A DNA stretch of 64,000 nt from Escherichia coli. Its GTDB lineage: Bacteria > Pseudomonadota > Gammaproteobacteria > Enterobacterales > Enterobacteriaceae. This document shows, piece by piece, positions 63,869 to 64,000 of this stretch. Under the pieces are notes generated by a model, which ran no database searches, was not told the DNA's origin, and worked only from the letters and a program-made list of their open reading frames with translations. The stretch lies in NCBI RefSeq assembly GCF_003334355.1, contig NZ_QOWP01000010.1; one strand, given 5' to 3'. Every line of letters starts with the position of its first letter. Position 1 is the first letter of the stretch. A program made the translations under genes and the position numbers.

Positions 63869-63878
63869 AGCGGCATTT

Positions 63879-64000
63879 TGATCCTACCCACGTAATATGG
63901 ACACAGGCCTAAGCGAGGTTCTGGTTTTCAAATTGTTCCGGACTGAGGCCGCCACACCAACTGTGCCGCCGCCACCGATTGTAATCACATTCGATATAAT
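63879..64000 (-). mobile_element. IS3 right end (terminal inverted repeat TGATCCTACCCACGTAATATGGACACAGGCC) with 3' end of transposase orfB; element continues beyond window
   Basis: Sequence recognised as the IS3 terminus; minus-strand reading frame ends ...YIECDYNRWRRHSWCGGLSPEQFENQNLA* (stop at 63909-63911), the IS3 InsF C-terminus. Confidence 0.85.
63909..64000 (-). CDS. insF: IS3 transposase OrfB (InsF), C-terminal 30 codons; truncated by window end
   Basis: Minus-strand translation ...YIECDYNRWRRHSWCGGLSPEQFENQNLA-stop. Confidence 0.8.
   Translation of the reverse strand, partial: YIECDYNRWRRHSWCGGLSPEQFENQNLA

Follow-up and report, generated by a model that had tools for sequence, protein, structure and literature searches.

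IS3 downstream of dgcT in an Escherichia coli genome very probably marks an IS-linked deletion from an OI-47-like island

The 64,000-nucleotide stretch of Escherichia coli DNA analyzed here (the window) closes 122 bp into an insertion sequence that begins just beyond the stop codon of the diguanylate cyclase gene dgcT. These last bases are the right-terminal-repeat (IRR) end of an IS3 element that is orthologous in position to IS3D of K-12 and very probably lies at the junction of an IS-linked deletion of ~31.7 kb from an island resembling OI-47. For this strain, the rest of the element and its right junction are taken from relatives, which are 99.9–100% identical to the window over its last 12 kb.

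The dgcT gene (ycdT), which encodes a membrane diguanylate cyclase of 452 aa, occupies positions 62510–63868 on the plus strand (start according to the MG1655 annotation) and terminates with the stop codon TAA at 63866–63868. A 10-bp spacer, AGCGGCATTT (63869–63878), separates this stop codon from the IS3 end. The element starts with TGATCCTACCCACG... at 63879, 11 bp past the stop, and its whole visible part (63879–64000, minus strand) corresponds to the first 122 bp of an element that measures 1258 bp in all the relatives examined. The outermost portion is the right terminal inverted repeat, IRR (TGATCCTACCCACGTAATATGGACACAGGCCTAAGCGAG; 39 bp, 63879–63917, minus strand). It begins with 5'-TG and has the ~39-bp length of an IS3-group terminal repeat, and 28 of its 39 positions are identical to the left repeat (IRL), which was judged from the full MG1655 copy. 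The 3' end of orfB (insF) runs through 63909–64000 on the minus strand, with the last 29 complete codons and the stop codon TAG (63911–63909). The encoded peptide ends in ...YIECDYNRWRRHSWCGGLSPEQFENQNLA* and is identical to the C-terminal end of InsF/OrfB encoded by the full IS3 copy of strain PSS-12, save for one K->Q replacement. The 122 bp showed 98–100% identity (E ~1e-55) to IS3 copies in thousands of E. coli records, comprising both chromosomes and plasmids, and a 601-bp query with its end at 64000 had matches in 5952 E. coli records. The IS3 match in the window is not a chance match. The repeat had a median of three matching places per genome in the sequence searches. The original prediction had placed an IS3 right end 11 bp past the dgcT stop and had read the OrfB C-terminus from the minus strand, and both the sequence and the MG1655 annotation agree with it. 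The prediction had also held that the orientation of the element could not be resolved because the window ends. However, since the IRR end and the minus-strand orfB are both visible, the orientation can be read from the window alone: the transposase genes (orfA/orfB) read towards dgcT, that is, convergently with it.

The same arrangement is annotated in MG1655 (NC_000913.3), where "insertion sequence:IS3D" (1094245–1095502) starts 11 bp past the dgcT stop at 1094234 and carries insF4 and insE4 on the strand opposite dgcT, with the offset and orientation found in the window. IS3D and the window copy agree in the element, its orientation, and the left junction to the base, and 121 of the 122 visible bases are identical; the single difference is at 63923 (T in MG1655, G in the window), where InsF undergoes the K->Q replacement. 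With the same junction at the dgcT stop + 10 bp, the window IS3 is the positional orthologue of K-12 IS3D. A 100-bp query centred on the dgcT–IS3 junction was found in 2303 of 5426 complete E. coli genomes (42%). The junction-bearing genomes include K-12 derivatives, a B-strain derivative (T7 Express), and STEC and ETEC isolates, and ATCC 8739 was among the matches of a longer, 12-kb query. As regards the differing base, PSS-12 has T at 63923 as MG1655 does, and the G of the window changes ...ENKNLA of InsF to ...ENQNLA. CFSAN061761 has this G in its IS3 at the same site, as do other IS3 copies, and the base falls within the terminal 50 bp, a segment that reduces outward transcription in a published assay (PMC12095673).

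The full length of IS3 is 1258 bp in all four relatives examined (MG1655, EC11, CFSAN061761, and PSS-12), and the copies of MG1655 and CFSAN061761 are 99.7% identical to each other. Within the collection, PSS-12 is the strain nearest to the window, from which it differs by 5 mismatches and 1 gap in the last 12 kb. At the same site, this strain carries an intact IS3 transposase (orfA/orfB), for which a programmed frameshift is annotated; beyond it lie truncated ymdE, ycdU, serX, and ghrA, and the truncated ymdE, a 357-bp pseudogene as in EC11, is annotated directly after the IS. In the PSS-12 locus (L009), orfA (17774–18082) and orfB (16911–17777) overlap, and a slippery sequence, CCAAAAGG, lies at or upstream of this overlap, providing the A-AAA-G motif of a -1 frameshift in a part of the element beyond the window. 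RefSeq labels the IS3 transposase "programmed frameshift" in relatives. The PSS-12 OrfB scored 339 bits against the NCBIfam model NF033516 (transpos_IS3; cut-off 160) and contains the Pfam domains rve (1.3e-27), rve_2, and HTH_21. The 29 codons in the window match this OrfB with its DDE (rve) core, apart from the K->Q replacement.

Over its whole length, the window is collinear with MG1655 1029583–1094366, yet it is not K-12. The IS1D element of MG1655, located between gfcA and cspH, is absent from the window host, and the unoccupied site GACAATACG at 20190–20198 is the 9-bp target that is duplicated in MG1655. Divergence from MG1655 is mosaic, amounting to 1–5% across 22–52 kb of the window and reaching 97 mismatches per 2 kb at 34–36 kb (the cbpA/yccE region, with several small indels). 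The last 12 kb (52000–64000) have only 7 mismatches, and the pga–dgcT–IS3 segment is nearly identical to that of K-12. The mosaic pattern in the alignment suggests recombination tracts. Two 1-bp indels relative to MG1655 are located near or in efeU (window ~50821–51096). This gene is a frameshifted pseudogene in K-12 and is intact (831 bp) in PSS-12, and the window efeU is probably the intact form.

IS3 makes 3-bp target duplications on transposition. In the relatives, the flank on the IRR side is CATTT, and that on the IRL side is GTG (MG1655 and EC11) or GGC (CFSAN061761). The longer IRL-side sequence is GTGCCTGG... in MG1655 and EC11 and GGCGGTTAAAGG... in CFSAN061761. The 3-bp duplication of a simple IS3 transposition is thus not found in these relatives, and this leaves the identity of the element unaffected. 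The original prediction had proposed that the duplication be recovered by extending the sequence downstream; in the relatives whose IRL flank was read, there is none (TTT vs. GTG or GGC). The lack of a matching 3-bp duplication in the flanks shows that the present arrangement is a deletion junction. In the window's strain, the 1258-bp IS3 is expected to be followed by GTGCCTGGCACACGCG, a K-type ymdE remnant.

The extent of the missing DNA is seen by comparison with the O157-type strain 139, which is IS-free and has the same dgcT end and spacer, followed by ...GCGGCATTTTAGCGGGTGA.... The spacer sequence is identical in the IS-free O157-type allele and runs on there as ...T AGCGGGTGA to pdeT/vmpA. 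In strain 139, this sequence leads into an EAL-domain gene 98 bp downstream, which is succeeded by genes for a regulator, fimbriae (an operon), a two-partner secretion pair, and ABC transporters, the last of these preceded by a fatty-acid/polyketide-like cluster. This segment closes with a full-length ACP S-malonyltransferase gene (intact ymdE) and ycdU. The K-12-type IRL flank aligns inside this malonyltransferase gene, and the CFSAN061761-type flank aligns 185 bp earlier. With the breakpoints placed on strain 139, the DNA replaced by IS3 is 31,741 bp in the K-12 type and 31,556 bp in the CFSAN061761 type. IS3 marks a deletion junction of ~31.7 kb and is not a simple insertion.

There are one left junction and two right junctions 185 bp apart, as represented by positions 5309–5837 of the CFSAN061761 locus (L006) and 5504–5846 of the MG1655 locus (L003). 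The CFSAN061761-type right junction, which leaves a longer ymdE remnant, was found in 716 genomes. The remaining IS-bearing genomes mostly have the K-12-type right junction; the split is approximate, and the count of 2195 for the K-12 type is inflated by query halves joined across the extra 185 bp of the other type. About 100 genomes displayed the left junction but neither right junction. The IS-free, island-bearing junction was found in 389 genomes; those listed as examples are O157:H7. The presumed intermediate, in which the IRL of IS3 is joined to the native flank TTTTAGCGGG... towards pdeT, was found in 0 of 5426 genomes.

In EDL933, vmpA/pdeT is located immediately downstream of ycdT, and it is absent from K-12 (PMC4287979); the gene belongs to OI-47 (PMC4076661). 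The last 47 bp before the IS in the window (63832–63878) are identical to the O157-type allele of O-island 47 of O157:H7 (vmpA/pdeT ... ymdE–ycdU), and ymdE'–ycdU past the IS in the relatives corresponds to the right edge of the island. The IS3 strains differ from the island in that ~31.7 kb including pdeT/vmpA are missing, with IS3 in their place and truncated ymdE and ycdU left. A third type of genome has no island: its dgcT has different last 12–15 codons and is directly followed by the convergent tRNA-Ser gene serX. The homology of the window to these serX-type alleles breaks near 63831. The stretch at 63832–63878 (plus strand), which comprises the last 12 dgcT codons, the stop codon, and the 10-bp spacer, is common to the window and the O157 type and is absent from the serX type. 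On account of this break in homology, the last 47 bp before the IS are best read, from the comparison of alleles, as the left edge of the OI-47-like island. The 12 final codons of dgcT encode VVVRDVVNFCESP in the island- and IS3-type alleles and VVVKEAEILINRKDDE in the serX-type alleles (L010 and L011), and because the C-terminal codons differ between allele types, the island boundary would lie inside the gene. A strong hairpin with flanking A/U runs is located between dgcT and the convergent serX in the serX-type allele (L010), and it is found only in serX-type genomes.

The coding sequence of dgcT, the hairpin at its stop codon, and the 10-bp flank are untouched by the IS. The RNA hairpin over the stop codon (63841–63867, plus strand) is shared by IS3-bearing and IS-free (O157-type) alleles. 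It is no canonical terminator, and together with the next CAUUUU it is kept in the IS-bearing allele. Simple scans of the IS-free O157-type flank detected no recognizable intrinsic dgcT terminator, and the folds of this flank were not better than those of shuffles (z -0.5 to -0.7). These results divide the claim that the insertion removed or replaced the native 3' flank and terminator of dgcT. The IS-free relatives confirm the replacement of the flank beyond the 10-bp spacer. The loss of a terminator is unsupported, as none is recognizable in the arrangement preceding the insertion and the stop-codon hairpin with its CAUUUU is retained.

Compared with that of MG1655, the window dgcT is marked by Y430C and K90. 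The former arises from an A->G change at 63798 and alters the GGDEF C-terminal motif (A)LY(x)AK(x)GRN, which is conserved. Among solved diguanylate cyclases, the three with the best match have tyrosine at the position of DgcT 430, as does dgcT of MG1655, EC11, PSS-12, CFSAN061761, strain 139, and strain 201609. The exact 61-mer with the Y430C change was found in 1 of 4114 complete genomes with dgcT. Judged from the sequence, the replacement could denote an impaired cyclase or a sequencing error. In pgaC (minus strand), the run at 56664–56669 has five A residues, compared to six in MG1655 and PSS-12, and the gene is split into two ORFs, 56157–56681 (174 aa) and 56639–57481 (280 aa). This change may be either a frameshift inactivating PGA synthase or a homopolymer sequencing error. 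If the pgaC frameshift and DgcT Y430C are real, they would represent two hits in one pathway.

Outward transcription from IS3 into dgcT in the antisense direction, as suggested by the original prediction, is possible and probably weak. Two later papers (PMC8860574 and PMC12095673) cite Charlier et al. 1982 for an outward promoter at the IS3 right end. Candidate outward promoter hexamers are located at 63930–63983 on the minus strand, namely TTGGTG (63960–63955) and CAATTT (63935–63930), and a second candidate -10 element, TACAAT (63983–63978, minus strand), has a -35 element, TTTAAT, that straddles the window end (PMC12095673). The wild-type 150-bp right end was picked for a reporter study because it had no detectable promoter activity. 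Deletion of the last 50 bp, which correspond to 63879–63928 (minus strand) of the window, raised expression 1.9-fold; that is, the terminal 50 bp lower outward transcription ~1.9-fold in this assay, and a polymerase pause, termination, or a Rho site was proposed (PMC12095673). In our consensus scans, the interval from the orfB stop to dgcT showed no terminator-like site, and no sigma-70-like promoter spanned the IRR junction. Any effect of IS3 on dgcT expression, whether by convergent transposase transcription or by a weak outward promoter, is probably small.

The window stops within the IS, and drafts often break at this element. ymdE is foreshortened by IS3 across phylogroup A and is found at contig ends in drafts of this phylogroup (PMC4951805). 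These points would suit a reading in which the window's strain has only an IS3 fragment, or in which the assembly breaks in the repeat, and 122 bp say little on a functional element. Such a reading is very improbable in view of the complete 1258-bp element in all four relatives and the presence of the junction in 2303 finished genomes, and the possibility attached to the original prediction that only a remnant is present is not borne out by MG1655, EC11, CFSAN061761, or PSS-12. A simple IS3 insertion in the dgcT 3' flank that duplicated a 3-bp target and removed nothing else has next to no probability. Its left junction lies in a T-run, and the empty site GCGGCATTTTAGC would allow a TTT duplication in principle. 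However, the IRL flank in MG1655, EC11, and CFSAN061761 is ymdE sequence (GTG... or GGC...) and not the native TTTTAGCGGG, truncated ymdE is annotated right after the IS in PSS-12, and the IRL joined to the native flank occurs in none of the 5426 genomes; for the relatives, simple insertion is already refuted. We also considered that IS3 may be kept since it regulates its neighbours, either by antisense or convergent transcription into dgcT or by driving ymdE'–ycdU from the IRL side. The outward promoter reported in the right end (as cited in PMC8860574 and PMC12095673), the lack of a terminator-like site between the orfB stop and dgcT in our scans, and the conservation of the junction in 42% of the complete genomes are in keeping with this explanation. 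It is nevertheless unlikely, given that the wild-type 150-bp right end has no detectable activity and its last 50 bp are repressive (PMC12095673), that no sigma-70-like site was found across the junction, and that common descent alone explains the wide conservation. The specific proposal that the intact IS3 is a regulatory part of the PGA/c-di-GMP locus, damping dgcT or supplying ymdE'–ycdU transcription, is quite improbable; if true, the regulatory IS3 and the loss of PdeT would rewire local c-di-GMP control.

As to the origin of the deletion junction, we infer that IS3 itself made the deletion, by transposase-mediated adjacent deletion. One IS3 insertion would have been followed by one-ended adjacent deletions mediated by the transposase, in which one IS junction is kept and the other end cuts into the neighbouring DNA. 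The first deletion, of ~31.6 kb, would have started at pdeT/vmpA directly downstream of dgcT and ended inside ymdE, and the second, of 185 bp, would have occurred in the K-12-type lineage. An intact IS, a constant junction, no duplication, and nested end points are typical products of IS-made adjacent deletions. The combination of an intact IS, a constant junction, no duplication, and two nested end points at dgcT therefore favours adjacent deletion. Experimentally, IS3 deletes DNA adjoining itself while staying intact (PMC8860574). The adjacent deletions by IS1 at gal, Tn5, and IS3 (Kanai et al. 2022, PMC8860574) left an intact IS with one constant junction and DNA lost beside the other end, and they exhibited no target duplication and nested end points, as at the dgcT junction. 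The IS3 deletions of Kanai et al. are of kb scale and on plasmids, whereas the dgcT-side deletion is much larger and its mechanism is deduced from the end products. The main rival is RecA-dependent recombination of two direct IS3 repeats, one beside dgcT and the other in ymdE, leaving one hybrid IS3. This process would likewise leave a single IS with non-matching flanks and no target duplication, and in laboratory evolution, large duplications have used IS3D as a substrate for recombination (PMC12625342). On the other hand, two independent second insertions 185 bp apart in ymdE would be needed for both right junctions, and no two-copy intermediate was seen (one intermediate junction was searched, with 0 of 5426 genomes). 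We regard two-copy recombination as a minor but real possibility; the arrangement of one left and two right junctions fits repeated IS-adjacent deletions better than a single homologous recombination. IS3 may first have landed either beside dgcT or in ymdE, the intermediate having been found in 0 of 5426 genomes. The direction of the change, in which the island was lost and not gained, rests on the truncated ymdE and not on a dated phylogeny.

The main points of this picture have all been described before, in print or in the reference annotation. IS3D adjoins ycdT and precedes the pseudogene ymdE (PMC5635171), and large duplications that arose in laboratory evolution end at it (PMC12625342). 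The literature thus already covers IS3D, the truncation of ymdE, and the lack of vmpA in K-12. In the literature examined on this locus, we did not find explicit statements of the two right junctions 185 bp apart, of the precise size of the replaced DNA, or of an island origin for the 12 codons that end dgcT. All three are small refinements.

The locus represents an old, widespread deletion and ordinary, already-described biology, and its importance beyond correct annotation is slight. The repeat after dgcT breaks assemblies and serves large rearrangements. Biologically, the disappearance of the neighbouring c-di-GMP phosphodiesterase gene is the larger change here; the IS is a marker for the loss of pdeT/vmpA and ~30 kb of island genes. 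This loss is one reason why K-12-like results on biofilm and c-di-GMP do not transfer directly to O157:H7.
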